From Candidatus Epulonipiscium sp. (GTDB lineage Bacteria > Bacillota > Clostridia > Lachnospirales > Defluviitaleaceae), in contig JAAYRK010000082.1 in NCBI GenBank assembly GCA_012518815.1, positions 2,465-66,464 on the forward strand: a DNA stretch of 64,000 bases, written 5' to 3'. Each line of letters opens with the position of its first letter. Position 1 is the stretch's first letter. Shown here in pieces: positions 49,655 to 64,000 of this stretch. Both the position numbers and the translations under genes were made by a program. The notes below the pieces were generated by a model that was not told the DNA's origin, did no database searches, and saw nothing but the letters and a program-made list of their open reading frames with translations.

Positions 49655-50133
49655 GGGGAAACTACCATCCTTTCATCTTTCTTAAATTCTTCGAAAGGAA
49701 TCCCATGATCTTTATATTTTTTAAGTACAAAATGTGTACTAGTACTTAACACTGATTCAAGGGTAGACAATTTTTGTGCAACAAACAAAGCTACCTCTTT
49801 CATGGTTTTACCTTCGATGATAACAGTTAAATCAAAGCCTCCTGACATCAAATAAACAGCTTTTACTTCGTTAAAACGATAAATCCTTTCAGCTATTTTA
49901 TCAAAACCCTCTCCTCTTTGAGGAGTTACTTTTACTTCAATTAATGCTGTAACTAAATCCTTATCAGTTTTTTCCCAATTTATTAATGTATTATAACCGC
50001 AAATAACTTGTTCTTTTTCCATTTGCTCAATTTCTTTTTCAACTTCTTCTTTTGACATATCCAACATGATAGCAATATCTTTTGTTGCTAATCTACTGTT
50101 CTTTTCTAGTAATTCTAAAATTTTACGCCTCAT
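49651..50133 (-). CDS. Lrp/AsnC family transcriptional regulator
   Basis: 160 aa with an N-terminal HTH (ILELLEKNSRLATKDIAIMLDMSKEEV) and a C-terminal AsnC-type effector domain. ATGA overlap with the aminotransferase gene. Confidence 0.85.
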   Translation of the reverse strand: MRRKILELLEKNSRLATKDIAIMLDMSKEEVEKEIEQMEKEQVICGYNTLINWEKTDKDLVTALIEVKVTPQRGEGFDKIAERIYRFNEVKAVYLMSGGFDLTVIIEGKTMKEVALFVAQKLSTLESVLSTSTHFVLKKYKDHGIPFEEFKKDERMVVSP

Positions 50134-51808
50134 TATTATCCTCCTGTTCAGTATAAGCCTGTTCTTCTATAGATTGTTCATATTCTACTTTGTAATCTCT
50201 AAAGAAACAAACTCTGTTTTTACCTTTAGACTTAGCTTGGTACATTCCCCAATCGGCTTTATTAATCAGTTCTTCATCAGAAAAACCATCCACACCATAT
50301 TCTGCTATACCTATACTTACAGTTACATTTCTATCTACATCAAGCAAGTCTTTGATAGGGCATTTTTCAATATTTCTCCTTATTCTTTCTGCTGTAATGT
50401 ATGCATTACAAAACTCTGTCTCTGGGAGAACAACAACAAATTCTTCTCCCCCATATCTAGATACTAGATCAATTTTGCGTATGGTCATTTTAGTAATCTT
50501 ATAAATTAATTTAAGGACTTCATCACCTATATTATGCCCATATGTATCATTAAATGATTTAAAATTATCAATATCAAAAAATAATATACAAAAATGTTTT
50601 CCATGTCTTTGAGATCTATCAATTTCTTTTTTAAGAAAAGTTTTTAAGTATCTTCTTGTTTTTGCACCAGTTAAAGGATCTGTATTTGCTTTCTTATAAA
50701 CCGAATTATATAAAACTGCAGTAGATAATGATGTTCCAGCTTGTCCAACTAATAAGGAAATCAGTTGCCCTGTTTCAGAACGAAATTGAGTATCTGTAGA
50801 AATAAGCAAGAAACCTCCTTCTTTCAAGCTACACATTATCTTAAACATATATAACCATTTCTTTTCTGGATTTAAAACAACAGTCTCCATATGATAAATA
50901 TTAACTAAATCTGCCATATAAAAAGGTTGATGAGCACCGATAACGTGTTTATAATCTTTCATGCTCTTAATTTTTTTGATTTCATTACCTATCTCAACGG
51001 TTTCATATCTTATGAGATCTCTTTTATTTCCTGCTTCTTTAAATCTTTTATAATTATATAAATATCCGTCAGAAGCCTTTTTAGAGTAAAGTAAAACAGC
51101 ACAATCATCACTATTAGACATTTTAGAAACATTTTTTAGGAGTATTTTAATAATTTCATTTTGAGAAAGACATTCATTCAATGATGCACTTATTTTGTTG
51201 ATGTGAATTAGGTTATCAATACTCCTTTTAGAATCTTGTATGGTAATGTTTTCTAATTCTTTTTGTTCTAATAACTCATCATATTTTTTAAGAACCTTCC
51301 ATAAAATAGAAAGGTTAAAAACAAAAACAATGGTCCAAAAGATACCTCTTATGTCCCAAAAACGCCAGTAATAATTATAACCAATAGTTAGTTCATATAA
51401 CCATATATTGGCTAAGATGATGGCATTTGCTAGTACAGAATATAAGCTAGTACGATACCTAACCAACATAGTAATCTGTATAATAATATAAACCATTTCA
51501 ATTGGTATTTCACAAACCCTTAAAATTATTGTTGCAGCCCATGGAATTGCAATTAAATCAAATATAGTAGATATTATGATTGCTAAATCAAACCATTTAT
51601 CATCATTTAGATGTTTAATTAAAATAAAACCAATGCCTACAGAAATTAAATAGTATGTTATAAAAATAAACATTCTATTTAATAATTGTGCTTCCATTTG
51701 CCTGCTCATACTAATGTTTAAAGGTACCAAAAAAAACACAAATAAGAAAGCGACTAATCTAAAACGGATTAATATATTTTCTATTCGCTTCCTTTCTTTT
51801 AAACTCAT
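50123..51808 (-). CDS. Membrane diguanylate cyclase (multi-TM N-terminus, central sensor region, GGDEF)
   Basis: 561 aa with the active site GGEEF and an I-site RKID five residues upstream (RKIDLVSRYGGEEF). It overlaps the asnC-type gene by 11 nt. Confidence 0.88.
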   Translation of the reverse strand: MSLKERKRIENILIRFRLVAFLFVFFLVPLNISMSRQMEAQLLNRMFIFITYYLISVGIGFILIKHLNDDKWFDLAIIISTIFDLIAIPWAATIILRVCEIPIEMVYIIIQITMLVRYRTSLYSVLANAIILANIWLYELTIGYNYYWRFWDIRGIFWTIVFVFNLSILWKVLKKYDELLEQKELENITIQDSKRSIDNLIHINKISASLNECLSQNEIIKILLKNVSKMSNSDDCAVLLYSKKASDGYLYNYKRFKEAGNKRDLIRYETVEIGNEIKKIKSMKDYKHVIGAHQPFYMADLVNIYHMETVVLNPEKKWLYMFKIMCSLKEGGFLLISTDTQFRSETGQLISLLVGQAGTSLSTAVLYNSVYKKANTDPLTGAKTRRYLKTFLKKEIDRSQRHGKHFCILFFDIDNFKSFNDTYGHNIGDEVLKLIYKITKMTIRKIDLVSRYGGEEFVVVLPETEFCNAYITAERIRRNIEKCPIKDLLDVDRNVTVSIGIAEYGVDGFSDEELINKADWGMYQAKSKGKNRVCFFRDYKVEYEQSIEEQAYTEQEDNNEA

Positions 51809-53790: not shown

Positions 53791-54897
53791 CTAAAATAAT
53801 GTAATAGGAGCATTTGAAGTCTCCAAATTAATATTAACTTTTTTTAATGCAGTATGATAATTGTTTGTTATTGCCTTTATATAACTTTTCTCATTTTCAA
53901 TAAAATCTATATTTGCCATATTTATTTGAATTTCATTTAGAGATGTCAAAGCTTTTATATCGTAAGCAATATCAAATCCTTTTAGAGTATTGACTTTTAT
54001 GGTTGCATTAGAAGTTTCAGCCTTCCATTCATATGTGTTAGATTCTTTAAGTTCTCTAATAGATGAGTCAATAATAATCTCCCCATTGGAAGTTATTAAA
54101 TTCATATTTGTAACATCGCTTAATTTAATATCAATAAATCCATTAGAGCTTTCTGCATGAAGCAATCTACCTGTTATGTTTTCTAAATGAATATTTCCAT
54201 TTGTTGTTTCCAATTTAACATTTTTAGCTGAAATATTTTTGAGTTCAATAGGCCCATTATTTACTGCTATGTCTATTTCATCCCCAGTTAAACCATCAAC
54301 GAATACACTGCTGTTAGTAGTTTCTAAATATATTTTACTAAATAAAAACTCTGGAACAAATGCTTCTATAGCAACATTAGTAAAATAAGCCTCATCATAA
54401 TTTAAATAATAGGTATTGTCCACTCTAAGTAATTCTATCCTGGAATTTTCGTTATTATTATATCCTATCTTTGCAGTAATTTTATCGCCATTATAGCCCT
54501 TAATATGAATCTTGCCATTCTTACATTTTAATCTTAATTGGCTATTATCCCCCTTAACTACATACATTTCAAAATTTAATACCTTTTTTTGCGAACTACT
54601 GGTAGAAGATGATAAAGATTTTGATATTTTGTCTGCAAAAGAATTAGCCTTATCTATAACCGTTTTAGCAGCCTTTTCAATTTTAGGTGCTAAATCTTTT
54701 GACAAAGCTTCAATTTTTTTATCAATATCCATGGAATAAGACTCTGTTTTCTTTTGTTGTTGATTATCCCTGCTTTCATGCGTCTTATTCTTATTAGTAA
54801 TTTTACCATCTAATGAATTTAATAAATTTACTGCTTCATCCGCTGTAATCTTTCCCTCTTCTAACATTTTTAAAATCTTCATTTTTTCTTCAACCAT
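53791..54897 (-). CDS. SHOCT-like N-terminus plus DUF4097 beta-helix repeat protein (YvlB/LiaX-like)
   Basis: 368 aa. The N-terminus reads KILKMLEEGKITADEAVNLLNSL. The C-terminal half has repeated TSNG.I/TTNGNIHL beta-solenoid units. RBS AAGGAG lies 8 nt before the ATG. Confidence 0.7.
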   Translation of the reverse strand: MVEEKMKILKMLEEGKITADEAVNLLNSLDGKITNKNKTHESRDNQQQKKTESYSMDIDKKIEALSKDLAPKIEKAAKTVIDKANSFADKISKSLSSSTSSSQKKVLNFEMYVVKGDNSQLRLKCKNGKIHIKGYNGDKITAKIGYNNNENSRIELLRVDNTYYLNYDEAYFTNVAIEAFVPEFLFSKIYLETTNSSVFVDGLTGDEIDIAVNNGPIELKNISAKNVKLETTNGNIHLENITGRLLHAESSNGFIDIKLSDVTNMNLITSNGEIIIDSSIRELKESNTYEWKAETSNATIKVNTLKGFDIAYDIKALTSLNEIQINMANIDFIENEKSYIKAITNNYHTALKKVNINLETSNAPITLF

Positions 54898-54981: not shown

Positions 54982-57750
54982 TTATTTTTTATTCCCTGTC
55001 ATTTTTCTTTTATGGGCTAGTAATGTTGATGTAGTAGTTTCGATTTCTTTAACTTCTTTTTTCTCTTTCTTAATTTTATTTTTTGATTTCTTTTCTTGCG
55101 GTTGAATCTTTTTCTCTAATTTTTCATTTTTCTTTTTATTAATTATAACTTTTTCAACATTTTTCTTTTTAAAGAAGCTAATTGATAAAATAATTAATTC
55201 TTCGATCTTATTATTAAGAACTCCTATCCTCCTAAATGCTATATCAAAAACAATTAATAAAAGTGCAAGGAAGAATAAAAATTCATCAATATCCCTTTCA
55301 CCATAGACAGATGATTCTATTTCTTCAAAAACCTCCTTAGGTTCAGTTAAAAGTCTGCCCTCTGATATTTGAGCAATTCTATTTAATAGTCCAGTATCTT
55401 GAGTAATTTTATTAATATCATATTCTGAAGAATAAGAAACATTTATTCCAGTATTTATGCTTTCTTCTTCTCCATTATTGTTCACTTGAATGTTTAAAAT
55501 ATATGCTCCTAAATTATTTCCTGGGAAAAGACCTGTATACTCTCCTGGTGCAGAAGCATTTAAATATATTTCATGTTCTGTCATATCAGGAGCTATAACA
55601 TTTACTTTAATTTCGGCTTCTGATTCCATATTAGGGATCCTTGCTTTTACTCTTATATTTTCCCCTTCTACCATTCCTTCAACCATTACATTATCACTCA
55701 TGGGCTTTCTAATTACCCAAGATACTGTATTTCTAAATACTTCTTGCCCTTCTGAAGAAAAAAGCCAGTCTAAACTCCATTGATTGTGCAAATCTGAAGT
55801 CCAAGCAGCAGTTCTTCCTAAACCATATCTCCACACTGCTAAAATTGGATCATCTTTATCACTGCTAAATATAACTTCCGCACGATTTTTAGGAGTTGTT
55901 GCAACATAACCATGTAAGGGTGGAAGAGTTTCTATTCCTTCGACGATAGGAGATAGTCTTGTTAATTTTGGATAAAATGTTTCATTATTTACATAGGTTT
56001 TTCCAGCCATCATTGTTTCTTTCATAAAAATCTTTGGCAAATCTGAAAACTCATCAGTATAATAATACCTTCCCCCACCTTGATTTGCTAATCTTTCTAA
56101 TAGATTTGTATCAGAGTGACGACCTACTGCTACTGTTGATAAGGTAATGCCTTGCTCATTCATTTGACTAATAAGACTATCATAGCCAGATCTTTCAGCT
56201 TGACCGTCAGTAAGTAAAATAATATGCTTTAGCTTGGTATCGGCATTACTAAGAATTTCATAAGCTTTATTAAGAGCAGGAATTATGCTTGTACCACCAC
56301 CTTCTGTTATCCCAGAAATACTTTCTTGTATCTTTTCTAAATTACCTTCAACCTCTTGCATTTCAACAATTATTATGGGCTTGTCATCAAAAGCTATCAC
56401 GCCTATTTTATCAAAAACATTCAAAACTTCCGTAGAACGAATAGCAGCTTCCTTAGCCAATGCAAGTTTTGAAACGCCATAAGGAGCTTCTGACATACTT
56501 CCTGACCTGTCTGTTACAAGCATAAGTCCCATGTCTGGAATATTACTCTTATCCTTTAATTCCATATCTACAGGAAGAACAGTTTCTAAGGGAGTATCAA
56601 AATAATTACCCAAGGCATAAGAGTTTTCTCCACCTGAAACAATTAAACCTCCTCCTGCATGCTTTACATAATACTCTAAATTATTTAAAAACCTTTCATC
56701 TAAGTCATCAGCAGAAATATTTGCTATAATAACTGCATCATATTGAGAAAGTAAATCTGCTTTTAAGGGAACCGTATTAGGATCTAGCCTATCTATCTTA
56801 AGTTTAGAATTCTTCAATATTTCCATTATTTCTGCACCGCTGTTATCTTGCTCTACTAATAGAACATGAGGTATATCTTCCACATAAGAGTAGCCATAGG
56901 CAACATTATTTTCAGAAATAGTATCCACTAAAGGCTCTATTTCCGCCTTATATATTCTTCCTCCACCTTCACTAGCAATATCAGAAAATACATATCGGTT
57001 TTTTCCCTTTCTTATTTGAACTTCCGTGCTTTCAACCAAATTATTTCCATTGTAAATTTTTAAAATACCCTTTGTATCTATTAAACTATCTATGTTTGCT
57101 TGAATAGTAAACTTTTGATTTTTATTTAAATACTTTGGAAGATTAAGTTCTGTCAATTGAACCTCTTCTTCAATTTGATTTATCAAAGGAAGAACATCTA
57201 TCTTTATACCCTGTCCAGCAAGTAATTTTGCTTGACTCATTGCATCACCAATATTTTCTTTTCCGTCAGTAATAAGTACAATACGCTTTTTTGACTCTTC
57301 AGGAATTAAGGTAGATGCTAATTTAAGTCCCTCCGAAATGTTTGTAGAATTGCTATTGACTATAGAAGAAAAGCCTGTAAAAACAGGCTCTGTACTTGGG
57401 CTGATTTCAACTGTGGCATTAGCTCCAAAAGCTACTATGGCTATTTCATCTTTATTATCTTTAAAATCTATAGATTTTCTTATAAAATCCTCCACCTCAT
57501 TTATAGAGGACTTGGAACTATCCGATAAATCTATCGCAAATATAGTAGTAGTCTTATCTATAGTTTTTTTAACTTGCAAGCCTGCCAAAGAAAAAACCAA
57601 AAGTATGACTATCAATGTCCTTAAAAACAAAAGAAAAGACTTCTTATAACTAGATAAAGTTAATTTTTTAGCTGTAAAAAATAAAAATATAACAAAAAGG
57701 GGAATTAAAAGTAAATAACCAATATTTATAAAATTAATTACCACGAACAA
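54982..57750 (-). CDS. Double-anchored membrane protein with two VWA domains and a glutaminase-like (DUF1355-type) C-terminal domain
   Basis: 922 aa with an N-terminal 2-TM hairpin and MIDAS motifs IDLSDSS and TDRSGSMS. GLGRTAAWTSDL resembles the DUF1355/GATase1-like family from memory. It ends in a C-terminal TM and a roughly 60-aa Lys-rich tail. Confidence 0.75.
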   Translation of the reverse strand: MFVVINFINIGYLLLIPLFVIFLFFTAKKLTLSSYKKSFLLFLRTLIVILLVFSLAGLQVKKTIDKTTTIFAIDLSDSSKSSINEVEDFIRKSIDFKDNKDEIAIVAFGANATVEISPSTEPVFTGFSSIVNSNSTNISEGLKLASTLIPEESKKRIVLITDGKENIGDAMSQAKLLAGQGIKIDVLPLINQIEEEVQLTELNLPKYLNKNQKFTIQANIDSLIDTKGILKIYNGNNLVESTEVQIRKGKNRYVFSDIASEGGGRIYKAEIEPLVDTISENNVAYGYSYVEDIPHVLLVEQDNSGAEIMEILKNSKLKIDRLDPNTVPLKADLLSQYDAVIIANISADDLDERFLNNLEYYVKHAGGGLIVSGGENSYALGNYFDTPLETVLPVDMELKDKSNIPDMGLMLVTDRSGSMSEAPYGVSKLALAKEAAIRSTEVLNVFDKIGVIAFDDKPIIIVEMQEVEGNLEKIQESISGITEGGGTSIIPALNKAYEILSNADTKLKHIILLTDGQAERSGYDSLISQMNEQGITLSTVAVGRHSDTNLLERLANQGGGRYYYTDEFSDLPKIFMKETMMAGKTYVNNETFYPKLTRLSPIVEGIETLPPLHGYVATTPKNRAEVIFSSDKDDPILAVWRYGLGRTAAWTSDLHNQWSLDWLFSSEGQEVFRNTVSWVIRKPMSDNVMVEGMVEGENIRVKARIPNMESEAEIKVNVIAPDMTEHEIYLNASAPGEYTGLFPGNNLGAYILNIQVNNNGEEESINTGINVSYSSEYDINKITQDTGLLNRIAQISEGRLLTEPKEVFEEIESSVYGERDIDEFLFFLALLLIVFDIAFRRIGVLNNKIEELIILSISFFKKKNVEKVIINKKKNEKLEKKIQPQEKKSKNKIKKEKKEVKEIETTTSTLLAHKRKMTGNKK

Positions 57751-59545
57751 ACACCCACCATTCTACCGCAATAAATAATAAAAGAATCATTAAAAAGATA
57801 TTTTTAAGGTTTTTATTTGTTTCTATCATAAGATCATTAGCTTGTGAGATTTCTTCAATGTTTTCTTCATTATCTACTGTATTATTACTATTAAAATCCC
57901 ATTCAACCACTGGGTTAACTGCAAAGTAATGAAAACTGTCAATTTTTTCACCTTTTTGTCTCAATGTATATATTCCTATTTCATTGGTATTATTATAAGG
58001 TTGAACTGGAAAAGGAGGTGCCAGCTTTTCAAATTCCCCTCCGGGCTTAACAATGCTAACTTCTTTTGATTCTGGTGATATTTGAAATTCAATTGTATCG
58101 CCGGCAGCAACCTTTTCTAAATTATGAATCTTTTCAGGTATAAACCATTTAATTGTATTATAAATAAAGATAGGAAATTCTGTTCTTAAAGGAAGGTCTG
58201 TTTGATGCAAATCAAAGCCACAAACAATAACCTTCTGTTCTCCTCGTTCGCCAGCAATGATTAAAGGCGTTTCTTCAGAGTTTAAAACTACCTGTCCCCA
58301 TGAAGGAGTTGACATTTTCTTAGTCACTGCTATATCAAACTTAATCTGGTCAATAAACTCCAATAATGCTCCTCCTGAAGAATAAATAGATGTTACTTCG
58401 ATATCATTTTCAACATTTATTAAAGGATTAGAAACAGGAGGATTAAATACTAATATATGTCCATCTTCAGGAATTGAATCAGGAATAAGTCCGTCAAATA
58501 TATAAAGATAATAACCTTGAAGGTTTTCAATATTGTCCAAATCTCCTTTGTATAATTCCACTTGGGGTAATAGAGAAAGTATTTGCTCTAGAAAAACATT
58601 TTGATTAGTTAACAATAATACCTTTTCCTTTGCATCTTCATAAACTACATCATACATAGTATTGTCAACTTCTAAAATATCCTCTACATCTATTTGTGCT
58701 TTTAAAATATTAACTTCTCTTGATATTCCAGTAAAAAATACATTTTTCTCTTCGTTGGCCTGCAATTGGACCCTTTTTATATCTATTAGTTTTTCATCAC
58801 CATATAAAGAAACTGTAAAATCATTCATTTGTGTCCCAAAATTTTTTACTCTAACTAAAGCTGCAATTTGCTTTTCCTCTTTTGAATGTGATAACAAAGT
58901 AATACCACAATTTTCATAGTTTTTTCCTATTTTTATTAAATTAGAATTTAAATCTGTAAATTTTATTTCTTTATCAGAAAATATATATATATTACTTTTA
59001 ACGTTTTCATAAATAGCCTTAACCAATGACTCAGTATTTTCTAAATCAATACCGCTATTTAACAGTTTTACATCCTCAATCCTTTTTATAACTGCATTAT
59101 TGTCCGTAGATTGATTGACTAAAATATAAGGCTCTTTTCCCATAACTACAACAGATATTTTAGCAGAAGGTTCCAGACTATTAATCATCTGATAGATTTT
59201 ATTCTTGGCTTCTTCAAACCTATTGGGGCTTTCATCCTTAGCCTGCATAGTTATTGATTGGTCAAGTACAATAATATAACTTCCCGATTTACTCATTCCT
59301 CCTGCAATATATGGATTTGCAAGGATTAAAACCAACAAGAAAGCAATAATTAATTGAAGGAATAGCAAAATATTTTTTCTAAGCTTTTGCCAAGGCTTAT
59401 AAGCCTCAGAATAACTCAAAGCTTTTTCCCATAAAAAAAGGCTTGGAACTTTTTTTTCTTCGTACTTTTGCTTTAATATGTACATTAATATTATTACAGG
59501 AATTGAGACAAGACCTAAAAAACCCCAAGGATTGTAAAAATTCAT
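57734..59545 (-). CDS. BatA-N (N-terminal double-TM) plus VWA-like protein with a C-terminal TM anchor
   Basis: 603 aa. The N-terminus FYNPWGFLGLVSIPVIILMYILK...LFLW is the aerotolerance BatA_N pattern. It has the MIDAS-like VLDQSIT and a C-terminal helix IFLMILLLFIAVEWWVF. It overlaps the next gene by 17 nt. Confidence 0.75.
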   Translation of the reverse strand: MNFYNPWGFLGLVSIPVIILMYILKQKYEEKKVPSLFLWEKALSYSEAYKPWQKLRKNILLFLQLIIAFLLVLILANPYIAGGMSKSGSYIIVLDQSITMQAKDESPNRFEEAKNKIYQMINSLEPSAKISVVVMGKEPYILVNQSTDNNAVIKRIEDVKLLNSGIDLENTESLVKAIYENVKSNIYIFSDKEIKFTDLNSNLIKIGKNYENCGITLLSHSKEEKQIAALVRVKNFGTQMNDFTVSLYGDEKLIDIKRVQLQANEEKNVFFTGISREVNILKAQIDVEDILEVDNTMYDVVYEDAKEKVLLLTNQNVFLEQILSLLPQVELYKGDLDNIENLQGYYLYIFDGLIPDSIPEDGHILVFNPPVSNPLINVENDIEVTSIYSSGGALLEFIDQIKFDIAVTKKMSTPSWGQVVLNSEETPLIIAGERGEQKVIVCGFDLHQTDLPLRTEFPIFIYNTIKWFIPEKIHNLEKVAAGDTIEFQISPESKEVSIVKPGGEFEKLAPPFPVQPYNNTNEIGIYTLRQKGEKIDSFHYFAVNPVVEWDFNSNNTVDNEENIEEISQANDLMIETNKNLKNIFLMILLLFIAVEWWVFVRGN

Positions 59546-59616
59546 AAGTACACCTCAATACTACATATTATAATTGTTCTATCAAAACTATGAAGTCTTA
59601 GTCGAGAAAACAAGCA

Positions 59617-59653
59617 TAAAAACTGCCAGAATATCATAAATCTTGACAGTTTT
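59617..59653 (-). terminator. Imperfect hairpin plus U-run after the coiled-coil gene (possible partial terminator)
   Basis: Minus strand reads AAAACUGUCAAGA...UCUGGCAGUUUUUAU. The stem has one mismatch and one bulge. Confidence 0.45.
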
Positions 59654-59667
59654 CTGCTTTGATATTT

Positions 59668-61215
59668 TTATTCTAAAGATGTAAAGTATTCTTCGATTAA
59701 GTTTTTTATTCCATAAGGAATATTATCATCTTCTAAAAAACTAATTGCTTCTTTCTTGTACTCTTGAAACACCTCTTGATAAGGAATAGACTCTCCTTTG
59801 CTACCAATGGTTTTTTCATCCTGTTGATGAATATGTCCCCCTTGATTTTTTTCTCCTTCTACTTGAGCTTCATACTCTGCCTTATCTGCTAGTTGTCTAG
59901 AATAAATATTTTCATTTTCTATATGACCTCTGCCACGTCCTTGACCACCGCCCTGACCTTGACCTTGGCCTCCTCCTTGTCCTTGTCCTTGACCTTCGCC
60001 CTGACCTTGACCTTGACCCTCTCCCTGACCTTGGCCCTCTCCCTGGCCTTGACCTTGGCCTTGGCCTTGATTGTCAGATTGTTCCTGACCTTTAGCAGCT
60101 TCTTTTTTAGCCTCTTCATTCATTAGCCTATTTATTTGCTCTATAGCTTCTCTTAACTCTTTGTTTTGAGATGCTAGATTGTCTAATTGTTCTGACAGTT
60201 GCTTATAACTTCCTTGCAATTCTGTCAGATTTCCACTAGTTATCGCCTCTTGATAACTCATAAGGCTATCCCTAAGCTGAGAATCTTCTTCAAGTGCCAA
60301 GGCAGCTTCTTTAAAAGCATTAGCAAGTTCATTTAATTGATCCTCATCCATATTTTCAAGTTCTTTATTTAAAGCATCAAGACTTCTTTTTATTTCTGAT
60401 AAATCTCCTTTTTGTAATTGGTCTCCTAATTCTCTTGTTAACTCATGTTGAGATAAGCTTTCCCCAACCTTTTTTAAATCTCTTTGAACTGAATCTTTAG
60501 ATATCTTTTTAAGCTCCTGCTGTGTTTTCTGACGGGCTCTTAAAATATCTCCTTCATTTTTTGATTTTTTTAAGTTTTTCTTTAATTCTTCTAATTCTTT
60601 CTTTATTTTCTTTACTTGTTCCTCTGTCAATTCTTTATTATCTTGAGTTTCCTTTTGTACCTTCTCAATTTCCTTTATTTCTTCTTCAATATTTTCTCTT
60701 AACTGAATCTGATAATCTAACTTTTCCTTTAGGGGACTAGGAGCAAAACCTACAATCATTGTCCCAATCAGCATTATCCCTATAATCTTAACTTTTTCCT
60801 TAGGAAAATATATAATATATTCCTTCTTAAAGTCTGCTTTTTTAGCCTTATTAATTGCATCTTCAACTACTAATTTTTCGAAGGAATTTAAATTTTTATC
60901 CTTATCATTAAGAATTTCAAAAGCAGTTAAAAAGCGTTCTTTATAGCCCAATGAATCACCCTTATCAACCAGGTTTTTCATATTAGGTAATCTTAAGACA
61001 AGGATAAAGGAAGCTATAAGCAAAGAAGCTATAAAAATACTAGTAACTTTTATAAAAATATTAGAAATCAAGGTAAATTTTGATAATAGTATAAGCCCGA
61101 TAGTTAATCCAAAGGCAATTATTACACTTATCAATATGAAATTAATCCACTTTTCAAGGATAATTTTACTTTTTAAAGGTTTAAGAGCCTTATATAACTC
61201 TTTCAAATTCATCAC
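59668..61215 (-). CDS. 3-TM membrane protein with a long coiled coil and a (GQ)n low-complexity block
   Basis: 515 aa with three TM helices in the first 155 aa, then a heptad-rich E/K/L/Q segment, then QGQGQGQGQGEGQGQGEGQGQGQGEGQGQGQGGGQGQGQGGGQGRGRG. ATGA overlap with the upstream permease gene. Confidence 0.7.
   Translation of the reverse strand: MMNLKELYKALKPLKSKIILEKWINFILISVIIAFGLTIGLILLSKFTLISNIFIKVTSIFIASLLIASFILVLRLPNMKNLVDKGDSLGYKERFLTAFEILNDKDKNLNSFEKLVVEDAINKAKKADFKKEYIIYFPKEKVKIIGIMLIGTMIVGFAPSPLKEKLDYQIQLRENIEEEIKEIEKVQKETQDNKELTEEQVKKIKKELEELKKNLKKSKNEGDILRARQKTQQELKKISKDSVQRDLKKVGESLSQHELTRELGDQLQKGDLSEIKRSLDALNKELENMDEDQLNELANAFKEAALALEEDSQLRDSLMSYQEAITSGNLTELQGSYKQLSEQLDNLASQNKELREAIEQINRLMNEEAKKEAAKGQEQSDNQGQGQGQGQGEGQGQGEGQGQGQGEGQGQGQGGGQGQGQGGGQGRGRGHIENENIYSRQLADKAEYEAQVEGEKNQGGHIHQQDEKTIGSKGESIPYQEVFQEYKKEAISFLEDDNIPYGIKNLIEEYFTSLE
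59926..60069 (-). repeat. In-frame hexanucleotide tandem repeat (CCYTGR)n encoding (GQ/GE)n
   Basis: About 24 consecutive units of ccttga/ccttgg/ccctga on the plus strand form a local GC-rich island. It generates spurious ORFs on both strands in the track. Confidence 0.9.
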
Positions 61216-62069
61216 CTATTCTTTCCTGCTAAAGGACGAATTCTAATGACACTTAATAAAATCATAATAATACTAACTACAGAATTAAATACTAAATTAA
61301 ACTGCCATAATTCAATTTTAACATTGTTGGGATTGTTATAAACATTAAGCAAATAATTTATTATATCAGCACCTACCTGATTTTGAATAATAGAAATAAA
61401 GCCTAGAAAGGGATTTCCACCAACAAGAATTATGGATTGTAAATATGTCAATCCATTTTGTCCTGTCATATAAGAATACTCTTGCATGATAAAATATACA
61501 ACAAGAGTTCCTATAGAAAAAATCAAAATAAACAAATAGCTAACAACTGTCGCAACAGTAGTCTTCTTAAAATAAGTAGAACAAAATATTCCTATACTAC
61601 CTAGCATAATTGATATTACGGCATAATATAAAAACAACAACAAAATGTTGATTAAAGATACTCCTCCAAAAATAAATATTACACTAAAAATAGGGATAGA
61701 AGCAAATATTAATAACATAATTTGACTAATAGAAGCTATAAGTTTCCCCATAATAATTGAAAAAGAAGAAACCCTTGTAATTAGCAAGAGATCTAGAGTT
61801 TGTCTTTCTCTTTCTCCACTTATGGTTCCTGCAGTTAATGCAGGTATCAATAATATAATTAGTCCCATCTGACATCCCGCTAGAAGTGCATATACTGTTA
61901 ATACATCTTGGGGGTCAAACGAATTATCATATGAACGATATAACGTTGCTAATAAGATTAATGAACCAAAACCTGCTAGTATAGTTAGATAAACTAATAA
62001 TAAAACAGGAGCTTTCCAAGTTCTAAGTTTTGTTTTTAACTCAAGACGAAGTACGGGATTTATCATCAT
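61212..62069 (-). CDS. ABC-2 type transporter permease
   Basis: 285 aa with six predicted TM helices. It follows the ATPase gene with a 1-nt gap. Confidence 0.8.
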   Translation of the reverse strand: MMINPVLRLELKTKLRTWKAPVLLLVYLTILAGFGSLILLATLYRSYDNSFDPQDVLTVYALLAGCQMGLIILLIPALTAGTISGERERQTLDLLLITRVSSFSIIMGKLIASISQIMLLIFASIPIFSVIFIFGGVSLINILLLFLYYAVISIMLGSIGIFCSTYFKKTTVATVVSYLFILIFSIGTLVVYFIMQEYSYMTGQNGLTYLQSIILVGGNPFLGFISIIQNQVGADIINYLLNVYNNPNNVKIELWQFNLVFNSVVSIIMILLSVIRIRPLAGKNR

Positions 62070-62070
62070 A

Positions 62071-62994
62071 TTACTCCCCTCCTTTAGTTATTTTCATAAA
62101 GATATCTTCTAAATTACCTTCTTTTTCATAGAAGGAAACGATAGGTATTTCTTTTCCCATTATTTGTTTTAGAAGAAGTGCAAGTCTATTGTCGTCTCCT
62201 TCAAAATCAAATTCAACTTCATCAGTTTTTTCAAAGATATCATGAATATCTGGCTGTTCTTTAAGGATTGTTATTAGTTCTTCCATTTTGTCTAATAATC
62301 TTATTTTTATCACTCTTTTTTGGGTCAGCTTCTGCATAATTTGGTTAACAGAACCGTGAGCAACTATCTGCCCATTTTCAATAATTCCAATAACTGTACA
62401 CAGCTCTGCTAATTCAGGAAGAATATGAGAGCTGATGATTATTGTTTTTCCTAAGTTTTTTAGCTGTTTTAATACTTCTTTCATCTCTACCCTTGCTCTT
62501 GGATCTAAGCCTGAAGCTGGCTCATCCAAAATAAGAATATCGGGATTATGAATCAAACTTCGGGCAAGGCATAATCTTTGCTTCATTCCTCTTGACAGAC
62601 TATCTACATAAGCATCTTTCTTATAAGACAAATCAACAAGCTCCAACAAATTATTTATTATTGTAGGTCTTTCTTTATAAGGTATTTTATACATGCCTGC
62701 ATAAAAGTCCATATATTCATCAACTTTTAAGTTGTCATAAACTCCAAAGAAATCTGGCATATATCCTATCTTTTCGCGAAGTTTAGAAGGATGTGCAGTT
62801 GCATCAATACCATTTATAAATACCTTTCCAGAACTTGTTTTTAATAAGCCAGCCACAATCTTCATTGTTGTTGTTTTGCCAGCTCCATTAGGTCCTACAA
62901 AGCCAAATATCTCTCCTTCATTAATAGAAAGGGATAAATTATTAACAGCAGTAAACTTGCCATATCTTTTTACTAAATTCTTTATTTCCAGCAT
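62071..62994 (-). CDS. ABC transporter ATP-binding protein
   Basis: 307 aa with Walker A GPNGAGKTT, the signature LSRGMKQRL, Walker B ILILDEP and an H-loop SSH. Confidence 0.93.
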   Translation of the reverse strand: MLEIKNLVKRYGKFTAVNNLSLSINEGEIFGFVGPNGAGKTTTMKIVAGLLKTSSGKVFINGIDATAHPSKLREKIGYMPDFFGVYDNLKVDEYMDFYAGMYKIPYKERPTIINNLLELVDLSYKKDAYVDSLSRGMKQRLCLARSLIHNPDILILDEPASGLDPRARVEMKEVLKQLKNLGKTIIISSHILPELAELCTVIGIIENGQIVAHGSVNQIMQKLTQKRVIKIRLLDKMEELITILKEQPDIHDIFEKTDEVEFDFEGDDNRLALLLKQIMGKEIPIVSFYEKEGNLEDIFMKITKGGE

Positions 62995-62995
62995 A

Positions 62996-64000
62996 TTATT
63001 TATCTCCTTTCAAACGTAAATATGGGATTTGGATGCCGGCATCCTGACCATTATCTATTGTAATTTTAAATCTTATTTTCATTGTTCCTTCATCATTTAA
63101 ATAATCATTAGTATTATGAGAATAAGCCAAAGGACTTAATTCTTCCCACTCTCCTTTTGCATTATTATATATTAATGCCTCTTCAATACTATTAATCTTT
63201 GTAAATTGTATTTGAAACTCTAAAATATTAATATCTTTAGGTAGAATATAATTAAAGTCTAAATCTCCACTATTATGAATCCATATTGAATCATCATAGG
63301 AATCAAAATAATAACCTGCATTACTTACGATATTGGGTCTTAAAAAACCATATGGGATTTCAAAATAATTAGTATTTTCGTAGTCTAATTTTAAAGGTAT
63401 AATAAATAAATTCTGTTTATAATGTTCTACTAATTTATCATTAATCTTTACACCTTCTAAAAACTCTTCTTCATTAAAGCCATAAAGAACAATATAATTA
63501 TCACCAAAAGAAGCTTGAGTATTGTTGTTCACAGAATATGACATAGAATTATACATAGTATCAAGATAGCCCTCATAAATATTTCTTCTTTGTATAATTC
63601 TTTGTAAATCTTCAGCTTTTATATCTTTTCCCCACTTTTCTTCCATATCCTTTTTATCATAGCTTTTTCCAAATATATCATCAAAAATTTCATATCTACT
63701 TTTAAAACTGCTAGCAAGCTCTTTTTCAATATCAATAGTTTCATTGTTTTTAATTCTATCAATGTAATAATAATTTTTCCCAACGACAAGAATACAGCTT
63801 TCAAGATCAAAACCAAGATTGTTTTCAATAGTTCCAACTAATTTATTATCTTTTAGAGTAATAGAAGAATTAAGGGGACCTGATGTATTATAAATAGTTT
63901 TACCGGAAATATTATTCATTTCCCAACTTTGACTATTATAAAATGTAAATTTATTTTTTTCCCCCATATTTATCTTAACTTTAACTCTTTCATTAAGTGT
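62996..64000 (-). CDS. Hypothetical protein, no recognisable family; the reading frame stays open to the right window edge
   Basis: The track gives 62996-63967 from an internal Met. The 33 nt upstream (TLNERVKVKIN) contain no stop, so the gene may start beyond 64000. It has a beta-rich N/Y/D composition and no TM helix. Confidence 0.55.
   Translation of the reverse strand, partial: TLNERVKVKINMGEKNKFTFYNSQSWEMNNISGKTIYNTSGPLNSSITLKDNKLVGTIENNLGFDLESCILVVGKNYYYIDRIKNNETIDIEKELASSFKSRYEIFDDIFGKSYDKKDMEEKWGKDIKAEDLQRIIQRRNIYEGYLDTMYNSMSYSVNNNTQASFGDNYIVLYGFNEEEFLEGVKINDKLVEHYKQNLFIIPLKLDYENTNYFEIPYGFLRPNIVSNAGYYFDSYDDSIWIHNSGDLDFNYILPKDINILEFQIQFTKINSIEEALIYNNAKGEWEELSPLAYSHNTNDYLNDEGTMKIRFKITIDNGQDAGIQIPYLRLKGDK

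Follow-up and report, generated by a model that had tools for sequence, protein, structure and literature searches.

The cluster occupies positions 54982-64000 of the 64,000-nt stretch of DNA that was analysed (hereafter the window) and consists of six co-directional open reading frames (ORFs), all on the minus strand. Read in their own direction, the first is the 3′ part (334 codons, 62996-64000) of a gene whose frame is still open at base 64000 and whose 5′ end lies outside the window; identical public contigs (L001-L006) give a full-length protein of 828 aa, here called U828. The gene for an ABC transporter ATPase (307 aa, 62071-62994) starts 1 nt past the U828 stop codon and is followed by genes for an ABC-2 family permease (285 aa, six to seven transmembrane (TM) segments, 61212-62069) and for CC515 (59668-61215), a 515-aa three-TM coiled-coil protein with a Gly-Gln repeat that starts at GTG or, alternatively, at an ATG one codon further in (514 aa). 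Beyond a 122-nt intergenic gap (59546-59667) lie the genes for BatA603 (603 aa, 57734-59545) and VWA922 (922 aa, 54982-57750), the latter with a TTG start codon, for which gene callers favour a 920-aa start. The spacings originally predicted for the six genes (1, 1, -4, 122 and -17 nt) are correct by the ORF coordinates. The genes had also been proposed to form one functional unit, and neighbourhood comparison bears them out as a conserved unit: the same order is found in at least 17 six-gene loci besides that of the window and in at least 61 eight-gene loci, an arrangement that is far beyond chance.

Domain architecture and membrane topology

BatA603 opens with a BatA_N double-TM hairpin, followed by an outside VWA domain (MIDAS motif DQSIT), a beta-sandwich, a DUF7408-like domain and a C-terminal TM segment. 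Pfam assigns BatA (E = 6.3e-17) and VWA_2 (E = 1.2e-11), the protein passes TIGR02226 (26.3 against a cut-off of 23.05), and DUF7408 itself matches 8 of 15 orthologues. The first half of VWA922 contains a short double-TM hairpin, VWA1 (DLSDS), a beta-sandwich and a DUF7408-like domain, and the second half VWA2 (DRSGS), a GATase1_like domain (residues 600-679 in Pfam), a beta-sandwich, a TM segment and a Lys/Arg-rich cytoplasmic tail, which measures 83 aa instead of the 60 aa first given. All three predicted MIDAS strings are present in the two proteins, and the VWA and GATase1_like assignments hold in Pfam and profile searches and in Foldseek, where VWA922 (AF2 model, pLDDT 79) was matched to BatB (3ibs, TM-score 0.76) and to the Bacteroides fragilis aerotolerance protein 4jdu (TM-score 0.75). 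A BatA_N hairpin had been claimed for both proteins; Pfam recognizes it in BatA603, but VWA922 has no Pfam BatA match and is related at the profile-profile level only, its N-terminal half being a BatA603 paralogue (hhalign against the BatA family, probability 99.1%, E = 1e-18). Natural BatA-VWA922 fusion proteins of ~1480 aa also exist.

U828 is predicted to comprise a signal-anchor TM segment, an outside beta-sandwich and a DUF7408/GATase1-like domain, followed by a TM hairpin whose cytoplasmic KDKRE loop is conserved and, at the C-terminus, a large outside beta-rich domain (AF2 model, pLDDT 81). Its family numbers 3462 representatives at 50% identity (E <= 1e-30); DUF7408 matches 12 of 20 members and DUF4350 weakly matches 3 of 20, and the fold class of the GATase1-like domain also holds DUF4350, ThuA and GH42M. 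In hhalign comparisons U828 shows a moderate relationship to BatA603 (probability 84%) and VWA922 (81%), and in profile searches it has no GldG or ABC_transp_aux match. The two transporter assignments of the original prediction were upheld by Pfam. The ATPase is DrrA/ABCA-like (ABC_tran, E = 2.6e-31, plus a DrrA1-3_C domain) and 56% identical to its Virgibacillus orthologue; it falls below the drrA and GldA cut-offs, reaching 246 bits with the GldA model, and its nearest solved nucleotide-binding domains (NBDs) are those of ABCA1/3/4. The permease matches ABC2_membrane_2 (35.4 bits, cut-off 27.2) and, weakly and below cut-off, GldF; no sequence relative of it was found in the PDB. The trio of U828 and the two ABC genes stands alone in one locus (L093).

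It is conceivable, though we consider it unlikely, that the cluster encodes a machine for the export and assembly of a surface polymer or lipid, like GldA/GldF/GldG, with a glycan, lipid or teichoic-acid-like product and with U828 and the VWA proteins as periplasm-side accessory or anchoring factors. The GldA score of the ATPase and its proximity to lipid-transporting ABCA NBDs, the permease family with its weak GldF match, the fold class of the U828 domain and the ability of the trio to stand alone all agree with such a machine, but the GldA and GldF cut-offs are missed, the GldG/ABC_transp_aux match is lacking, beside the cluster there is no conserved gene for a glycosyltransferase or for polymer synthesis, and the three conserved MIDAS sites would be left unexplained.

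CC515 matches no Pfam family, DUF4175 included. An alignment of 14 orthologues reveals a conserved cytoplasmic segment (residues 74-141) with invariant D87, G90, R94, T97 and D119. Further parts of the protein are an outside coiled coil, the Gly-Gln repeat, encoded by 19.5 tandem copies of a 6-nt unit (59954-60070), and a conserved C-terminal motif. Three TM segments are predicted in each of CC515, BatA603 and VWA922, with K/R-rich short loops, and positive-inside analysis predicts that the large domains of the cluster proteins lie outside the membrane. The outside-facing VWA domains and coiled coil of the original prediction fit this rule and the VWA domain of Borrelia BB0173, which is periplasmic by experiment (PMC5700661).

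Loss of MoxR and DUF58 from an eight-gene cluster

The 122-nt gap contains, in order, an imperfect hairpin, a T-run, a promoter-like TTCATA-16-TATAAT (59594-59567) and a GAGGTG ribosome-binding site. Its RNA folds at -26.3 kcal/mol (z = -2.43), and such promoter-like sites are not enriched relative to shuffled sequences; given the hairpin and the promoter-like site, the BatA603 and VWA922 genes may in part have a transcript separate from the upstream genes.

In the eight-gene relatives, exactly the position of this gap is occupied by genes for MoxR, a cytoplasmic AAA+ ATPase, and DUF58. Among the 80 closest loci scanned, these relatives (60 loci plus L092, annotated with HMMs) have the order U828, ABC ATPase, ABC-2 permease, 3-TM coiled-coil protein, MoxR (AAA_3), DUF58, BatA-type VWA protein and VWA/VWA/GATase1_like protein, and their flanking genes are not conserved, which indicates that the cluster is self-contained. 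The absence of MoxR and DUF58 noted in the original prediction extends over the whole window and 10 kb upstream of it, and neither gene was found within 10 kb on either side in 17 of 17 other six-gene loci, nor any remnant of them in the gap of the window or of those loci. The idea that the ABC-2 exporter and the coiled-coil protein stand in place of MoxR and DUF58 is not supported, since all eight genes coexist in the relatives. A canonical MoxR-DUF58-Bat locus simply continuing upstream had been named as a finding that would undo the claim; MoxR is not upstream, but the eight-gene relatives come close to such a locus. Neither form was found described in a literature search, in line with the prediction that the combination matches no characterized system.

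The six-gene form is monophyletic, comprising Anaerotignum, Defluviitaleaceae and 'Epulopiscium'-labelled MAGs: in a tree of the ABC ATPase and VWA922, all 16 six-gene loci included group together in a single clade that is surrounded by clades of the eight-gene form. Because this clade lacks remnants of a pair that relatives carry at the gap position, and has kept every VWA922 MIDAS site, the cluster of the window is a secondarily MoxR-less derivative of a Bat/MoxR-type module with an ABC transporter, and not a MoxR-independent invention. One ancestor of the clade lost the pair, a clean loss from the interior of the cluster, and thereafter the six genes, their order, their close spacing and the MIDAS sites of VWA922 were retained; the VWA1 and VWA2 motifs are intact in all 18 six-gene and all 60 eight-gene loci (78/78), and the BatA603 site was kept with minor substitutions (D-S-[STD]-D in 18/18 six-gene loci). 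That the remaining genes are a decaying, non-functional remnant might be supposed from the disappearance of two ancestral genes, but this is highly improbable: all six ORFs are intact in the 17 other six-gene loci despite identities of 23-85% (medians 23-42%), and the retained motifs and gene order already contradict decay.

The most serious rival, to which we give roughly one chance in three, is that this is an ordinary MoxR-DUF58-Bat system in which the pair has been relocated or a paralogous pair is used, so that the six genes would still depend on a chaperone. MoxR-DUF58 pairs are widespread, with one genome often encoding several, and the cytoplasmic BatA_N loop (invariant S35, L38 and W39 in the alignment), the cytoplasmic segment of CC515 and the Lys-rich tail of VWA922 are all conserved in six-gene members, as expected if a cytoplasmic partner persists. 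The conserved loops could instead be in contact with each other or with the ABC ATPase, however, and the regions scanned around the six-gene loci hold no such pair.

All of the recovered loci except one contig labelled Calditrichales come from Firmicutes, many of them spore formers (Clostridium, Paenibacillus, Brevibacillus, Virgibacillus and Thermoactinomycetes), and one might propose an envelope module that is confined to endospore formers and has to do with sporulation or with the cortex/coat. We regard this as improbable: no sporulation gene is in conserved linkage with the cluster, the cluster is not known from Bacillus subtilis 168, and the Firmicutes restriction may be a sampling effect of scanning the 80 closest loci only. 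A still smaller probability attaches to a surface-located MoxR-vWA sensor for conflict or defence, comparable to the NTP-dependent ternary systems (Kaur et al. 2020) or to the Esr pathway known from oral Actinobacteria. Pairs of MoxR and vWA belong to the core of such systems (PMC7159879; bioRxiv 10.64898/2026.09.08.750141) and the ectodomains here are large, but MoxR is absent from the cluster of the window, PADLOC matches reflect generic ABC ATPase similarity only, Pfam detects no effector, kinase, FHA or beta-propeller domain, and the cluster tree largely follows taxonomy, with stable synteny.

A proposed extracytoplasmic scaffold

We lean, if only slightly, towards the six genes being a lineage-specific, MoxR/DUF58-less form of an uncharacterized eight-gene envelope module, widespread among Firmicutes, that acts as follows. 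U828, BatA603 and VWA922 would have a beta-sandwich plus DUF7408/GATase1-like module in common and be fixed in the membrane by hairpins or through both termini, together exposing three metal-dependent (MIDAS) VWA domains on the outside of the cytoplasmic membrane, with the coiled-coil/Gly-Gln protein as a projecting spacer. Together, these ectoproteins may form a scaffold that binds envelope ligands and supports envelope integrity or stress tolerance, as reported for Bat operons and Rhizobium RL3499-RL3502. The U828-ABC trio would be a transporter that can be separated from the rest, with an engine of the ABCA/DrrA type, and would either supply a lipid or lipid-linked substrate or pass ATP-driven movement to the ectodomains. 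An ABC-powered extracytoplasmic MIDAS scaffold for envelope upkeep is the likely role; secretion and spore roles are speculation. In the eight-gene relatives the soluble, cytoplasmic MoxR-DUF58 pair could serve as an assembly chaperone, a step that in the six-gene form may be dispensable, replaced by the ABC ATPase or provided elsewhere in the genome. Counting against this explanation, MoxR and DUF58 of the relatives have no predicted TM segments and would be cytoplasmic, on the opposite side of the membrane from the large domains; the moderate hhalign probabilities of U828 and the possible separate transcription of the BatA603 and VWA922 genes count against it too.

Comparison with known systems

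The Bat (aerotolerance) operons of Bacteroides, Borrelia (BB0170-BB0176) and Leptospira have the order MoxR, DUF58, BatA, BatB and BatC/D/E. They share with the cluster two tandem VWA membrane proteins, a BatA_N double-TM hairpin leading into a VWA domain that carries a MIDAS and faces outwards from the cytoplasmic membrane and, in the eight-gene relatives, an MRP-type MoxR and DUF58 directly upstream of the VWA genes; the VWA fold of the cluster is closest to the solved BatB and B. fragilis structures. In contrast, the cluster of this lineage has no MoxR, DUF58, TPR or BatD-type genes, its proteins are two to three times larger (extra beta-sandwich, DUF7408, GATase1_like and C-terminal anchor), and its VWA genes are linked to the ABC-2 transporter, U828 and the coiled-coil protein. 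According to a Leptospira study, the Bat proteins are without a demonstrated specific function (PMC3557215).

The gliding-motility transporter GldA/GldF/GldG of Bacteroidetes likewise combines a DrrA-type ATPase and an ABC-2 permease with an accessory ectoprotein that is large, anchored in the membrane and equipped with a GATase1-like fold domain, but the cluster proteins stay below all three NCBIfam equivalog cut-offs, and U828, lacking the GldG match, differs in its central TM hairpin and additional ectodomain. Actinobacterial MoxR-DUF58-DUF4350-DUF4129 clusters join MoxR-DUF58 to membrane proteins that bear GATase1-like ectodomains; VWA/BatA proteins or an ABC transporter of the present type are not known from them. 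The pairing of a soluble MoxR with VWA-like DUF58 in the eight-gene relatives also recalls the MoxR AAA+/VWA chaperone pairs RavA-ViaA, CbbQ-CbbO, NorQ-NorD and CoxD-CoxE and fits the general model in which an AAA+ chaperone and a VWA adaptor mature a dedicated complex (PMC3893208), whereas in the window the pair is missing and a complex of membrane ectoproteins takes the place of a metalloenzyme as the putative client. The two large membrane proteins of Rhizobium leguminosarum RL3499-RL3502 presumably resemble those of the cluster. There they follow a MoxR(MRP)-DUF58 pair, in a Gram-negative alphaproteobacterium and without an ABC module. The MRP-type MoxR RL3499 is tied to membrane integrity and morphology, and this is the only operon of homologous type with an envelope phenotype (envelope integrity and cell morphology; cited in PMC3893208).

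Six genes and the VWA proteins

Every gene between 50 and 64 kb of the window lies on the minus strand, and six of them form a cluster that belongs to a larger, undescribed eight-gene family and is a MoxR-less form of the Bat/MoxR-VWA envelope modules; its parts are all of known kinds. In 5′–3′ order these genes, all on the minus strand, encode U828 (62996-64000, partial), an ABC ATPase (62071-62994, 307 aa), an ABC-2 permease (61212-62069, 285 aa), the coiled-coil protein CC515 (59668-61215, 515 aa), BatA603 (57734-59545, 603 aa) and VWA922 (54982-57750, 922 aa), with spacings of 1, 1, -4, 122 and -17 nt. The six ORFs are present in the order and with the spacing of the original prediction, and the observation is real. 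The U828 frame is open, without a stop, up to base 64000; the ATG at 63967 is internal, and the true start lies 494 codons further upstream, beyond the window. The full length of 828 aa was read from identical public contigs (L001-L006), which come from biogas-reactor and other metagenomes and carry the NCBI label of an ‘Epulopiscium sp.’ MAG. At 50123-51808, also on the minus strand, lies a gene for a 561-aa multi-TM protein with a GGDEF-type domain at its end, in which the motif GGEEF is seen in translation.

A BatA_N start had been proposed for both VWA proteins, and it was upheld for one of them. By definition the domain covers some 80 N-terminal aa, which span the membrane twice around a cytoplasmic loop; BatA603 scores 62.2 bits against PF07584 (cut-off 25.9) and 26.3 against TIGR02226 (cut-off 23.05), PF07584 matches 15/15 of its orthologues, and its domain content is BatA followed by VWA_2. 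The N-terminus of VWA922 gave no Pfam or NCBIfam BatA match and is related at the profile-profile level: two TMs are predicted around a shorter loop (14 aa), and hhalign pairs residues 6-361 of BatA603 and 7-353 of VWA922 at a probability of 99.1% (73% for the isolated hairpins). Because of this alignment, the N-terminal half of VWA922 is taken to be a BatA paralogue whose loop has been shortened. VWA folds with MIDAS motifs (D-x-S-x-S ... T ... D) were borne out by PF13519 and PF00092 matches above cut-off in both proteins, by Foldseek TM scores of 0.75-0.83 against solved VWA domains and by the VWA1 and VWA2 motifs, which are invariant in 78 loci; BatA603 carries the variant D-x-S-x-T. Pfam finds two VWA domains and a GATase1_like domain in VWA922, and the latter (PF07090, residues 600-679, 50.9 bits against a cut-off of 27) agrees with the glutaminase-like region that had been predicted.

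The AF2 model of VWA922 (pLDDT 79) is composed of a TM hairpin, VWA1, a beta-sandwich, an alpha/beta domain and VWA2, followed by the GATase1-like domain, a further beta-sandwich, a TM and a disordered tail. Among its single-domain matches to solved structures, Bacteroides BatB (3ibs) and the aerotolerance membrane protein of B. fragilis (4jdu) rank highest. In several lineages, including close ‘Epulopiscium’-labelled relatives, the two family members BatA600 and VWA920 are fused into proteins of ~1460-1490 aa (P0215-P0217, P0225, P0246 and P0248, from ORFs of ~4.4 kb in L076, L078, L082, L085 and L090), and such natural fusions, as a Rosetta-stone link, argue for physical association of BatA and VWA920.

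The transporter, U828 and the coiled-coil protein

The genes for an ABC_tran ATPase and an ABC2_membrane family permease stand side by side, and Pfam confirms the predicted exporter pair as an ABC-2 type transporter. The ATPase scores 109.5 bits against PF00005 and contains a DrrA1-3_C domain; it falls below the NCBIfam cut-offs for drrA and GldA. The permease matches PF12679 (ABC2_membrane_2, 35.4 bits, cut-off 27.2) and PF12698 (32.7 bits, cut-off 31.6). The pair differs from the GldA/GldF transporter, with scores under the equivalog cut-offs (246 against 402.6 for GldA, TIGR03522; 26.9 against 288.5 for GldF, TIGR03518), and U828 and 19 relatives gave no GldG or ABC_transp_aux (PF09822) match. 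Polymer or lipid export by this transporter is a rival account of what the cluster does.

U828 belongs to a large family (3462 cluster representatives at 50% identity, E<=1e-30) that has no Pfam family of its own. In the AF2 model of U828 (pLDDT 81) an N-terminal anchor precedes a beta-sandwich and an alpha/beta domain; a TM hairpin comes next, and the C-terminal region is large and rich in beta structure. A fold search of the PDB with this model found no whole-protein analogue, the weak local matches being GH164 chains, a mu-homology beta-sandwich and transglutaminase beta-domains. The reading of a GATase-like domain comes not from that search but from the Pfam matches to Glyco_hydro_42M, ThuA and DUF4350; DUF7408 is also matched, in 12/20 members. 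DUF7408, DUF4350, GH42M and ThuA are families that we take, from their Pfam clans, to be class-I glutamine-amidotransferase-like folds. The beta-sandwich and DUF7408 module of U828 aligned by hhalign with the matching modules of BatA603 (84%) and VWA922 (81%); the TM hairpin was ruled out as a BatA_N relative (probability <1%). A conserved Y-x-[IL]-L-K motif at the cytoplasmic end of a TM, followed by a basic loop, is found in both U828 (residues 393-407, L001) and BatA603 (residues 22-39), and may reflect a shared docking surface or merely the positive-inside rule. In one genome (L093:4132-8911) a distant U828 homologue of 939 aa, an ABC ATPase and an ABC-2 permease occur alone, directly downstream of a response-regulator/histidine-kinase pair and with no CC, MoxR, DUF58 or VWA genes, which makes the transporter part a unit separable from the rest.

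CC515 has no Pfam family. The suggestion that it is of the DUF4175 type was rejected, as PF13779 found no match at E<=0.1 in 14 CC515 orthologues, only low-complexity noise; the Acinetobacter DUF4175 protein AdvA is a division protein (PMC7481262). CC515 represents a conserved family, in which three TMs are accompanied by a cytoplasmic segment where five residues are invariant, a coiled coil, a Gly-X repeat and a conserved C-terminal motif. A word-indexed search with its N-terminal profile returned just five short, uninformative matches. In four loci (L008:11822-13396, L028:4603-6249, L053:4059-5735 and L066:3546-5291) the CC gene is broken up into two or three ORFs; if the breaks sit at the Gly-rich repeat, frameshifts or assembly errors in this low-complexity sequence are one explanation. 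Across the cluster, hydropathy and K/R counts predict that the short loops and an 83-aa Lys/Arg-rich tail are inside and every large domain is outside, in agreement with the outward-facing VWA domains of the original prediction.

Eight-gene relatives and the missing MoxR-DUF58 pair

In Virgibacillus doumboii and Clostridium sediminicola, distant homologues of U828 lie inside an eight-gene cluster with the order U828 - ABC ATPase - permease - CC - MoxR - DUF58 - BatA - VWA920. One genome per GTDB species was scanned with VWA922 as anchor and the best 80 loci were kept; these come from Clostridia, Bacilli, Thermoactinomycetes, Syntrophomonadaceae and Thermincola, among others. HMM annotation of these loci and 11 others gave the eight-gene order in 60 and the six-gene order in 17 besides the window's own contigs; eight loci could not be assigned because their contigs are too short. 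A very distant member, at 22% identity, also has eight genes, which brings the eight-gene relatives to 61. Gene content, gene order and the homology of the parts are directly observed in this set, and the predicted unit holds as conserved: six orthologues are found in order on one strand, and HMM scores and a tree place the window inside the family. Literature searches found no description of the Firmicutes cluster, and database names are generic (‘VWA domain-containing protein’, ‘Mg-chelatase subunit ChlD’). The 255-kb contig L040 (JAJGRE010000007.1), labelled Calditrichales bacterium MX18-03, carries a complete eight-gene cluster that falls inside the Clostridia clades of the tree, which suggests horizontal transfer or a mislabelled genome.

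The MoxR and DUF58 genes always lie between the CC and BatA genes, the position of the 122-nt gap in the window, and their products have no TM segments and are therefore cytoplasmic. As originally predicted, neither MoxR (AAA_3, PF07726; tblastn) nor DUF58 (PF01882) was found in the window, and neither occurs in the 10 kb upstream or in any six-gene locus examined; the CC-to-BatA gaps of six-gene loci hold no relics of them, with noise only at E 0.3-8. In a neighbour-joining tree of the ABC ATPase and VWA920, every six-gene locus falls in one clade nested among eight-gene clades. Besides the window, this clade contains the ‘Epulopiscium’ MAGs, Defluviitaleaceae, two Anaerotignum species (A. 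propionicum and A. lactatifermentans) and several MAGs labelled Lachnospiraceae. The simplest account is that MoxR-DUF58 was lost once, cleanly and long ago; what had been put forward as a separate design, with an exporter and coiled-coil protein in place of this pair, is instead a lineage-specific loss.

That the six-gene cluster is a decaying remnant is contradicted by its conservation after the loss. The proteins of this clade are all intact and in order despite divergence (median identities: U828 27%, ATPase 66%, permease 38%, CC 32%, BatA 34%, VWA920 42%), no change in the VWA1 and VWA2 MIDAS residues is seen in any of the 18 six-gene and 60 eight-gene loci, and the cytoplasmic BatA_N loop motif is kept; the remaining six genes have been under continued constraint. 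MoxR might be supplied in trans, and it seems rather unlikely that the Anaerotignum/‘Epulopiscium’-MAG clade operates an extracytoplasmic VWA/MIDAS machine of the Bat type with a MoxR-DUF58 chaperone nowhere in the genome. If it does, the ABC transporter and U828 ectoprotein, not an AAA+ ATPase, would be the core engine, that engine would belong to a previously undescribed Firmicutes-wide envelope system, and the clade would be a natural experiment on what Bat/MoxR-VWA envelope modules do.

The 122-nt gap folds into an imperfect hairpin (z = -2.4) with a T-run after it; next come a TTCATA-16-TATAAT site and a ribosome-binding site, GAGGTG. Partial termination and re-initiation ahead of BatA603 are possible; in a promoter scan of this AT-rich region, promoter-like sites were not above shuffled expectation. 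Flanking genes are shared within sub-clades only, and U828 and VWA920 are therefore the cluster boundaries. A UvrD/PcrA-type helicase gene (L001:5288-7498) lies 14 nt upstream of U828, with divergent genes beyond; 22 loci had enough upstream sequence, and the helicase was directly upstream in 14/14 six-gene loci and in no eight-gene locus. This adjacency is probably clade synteny, and co-transcription with U828 is possible. Downstream, no gene is conserved across the loci compared. In the window, DUF4097/SHOCT and DUF2225 genes follow; the former (SHOCT-like with DUF4097, ‘toastrack’; 53791-54897, minus strand) also follows the cluster in the window's nearest relatives (L009, L010 and L015), and in Virgibacillus a PadR-HAAS-DUF4097 triad (L007:6915-8587) lies ~1.4 kb upstream with two unrelated genes between. 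These DUF4097 neighbours, seen in few loci, may hint at envelope stress. A VanW, PG_binding_4 and G5 protein follows VWA920 in L012 (12918-14453) and 11 other loci, which are Anaerotignum-type six-gene loci, and is absent after VWA922 in the window. Conserved neighbours were rejected as a functional hint, since the helicase upstream and AIRS and VanW/G5 downstream reflect clade-level synteny only. Three clusters are interrupted by unrelated genes: a periplasmic-binding/EAL protein between CC and MoxR (L090:2801-6187), a GNAT/peptidase S51/radical SAM block (L081:1140-6116), and a GluRS gene between BatA and VWA920 (L073:7002-8651).

Possible mechanism and comparison with known systems

The membrane proteins would form an extracytoplasmic scaffold that presents three MIDAS sites as well as several modules of the GATase1-like and beta-sandwich types, from which CC515 might project as a spacer. 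The ABCA/DrrA-type transporter, together with U828, could either supply a lipid-type substrate or transmit ATP-driven motion. Analogy with other MoxR/VWA pairs (PMC3893208) suggests that MoxR-DUF58 of the relatives would be a chaperone that helps assembly from the cytoplasm. A role in envelope maintenance is suggested purely by analogy with RL3499-RL3502 and the Bat operons, and a sporulation role is a rival to it. Defence finds no support: PADLOC returned generic ABC ATPase similarity and a coiled-coil match at E=2.4e-4, nothing specific, and effector, kinase and FHA domains are absent from the Pfam results.

Of most use here are a defined eight-gene family and a natural MoxR-less clade. As one clade lacks the AAA+ chaperone pair while the rest is constrained, it offers a testable handle on core versus accessory parts, and cultivable hosts for genetics exist for both the eight-gene (Clostridium beijerinckii, Paenibacillus, Brevibacillus) and the six-gene (Anaerotignum) form.

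Bat/MoxR-VWA membrane operons are found in many phyla and, to our knowledge, have been without a mechanism since the 1999 work on Bacteroides aerotolerance. The outside placement of the VWA domains predicted here agrees with the BatA-type protein BB0173, whose VWA domain was shown experimentally to be periplasmic (PMC5700661). The downstream TPR/BatC, BatD and BatE partners of a Bat operon are lacking, none of the six window proteins having a TPR or BatD domain in Pfam, and the adjacent MoxR and DUF58 of a Bat or MRP-type MoxR operon are missing in the window but present in the 61 eight-gene relatives. In the Firmicutes version defined here, a dedicated ABC-2 transporter is always present, as are members of two new families, one of 800-aa ectoproteins and one of coiled-coil proteins.
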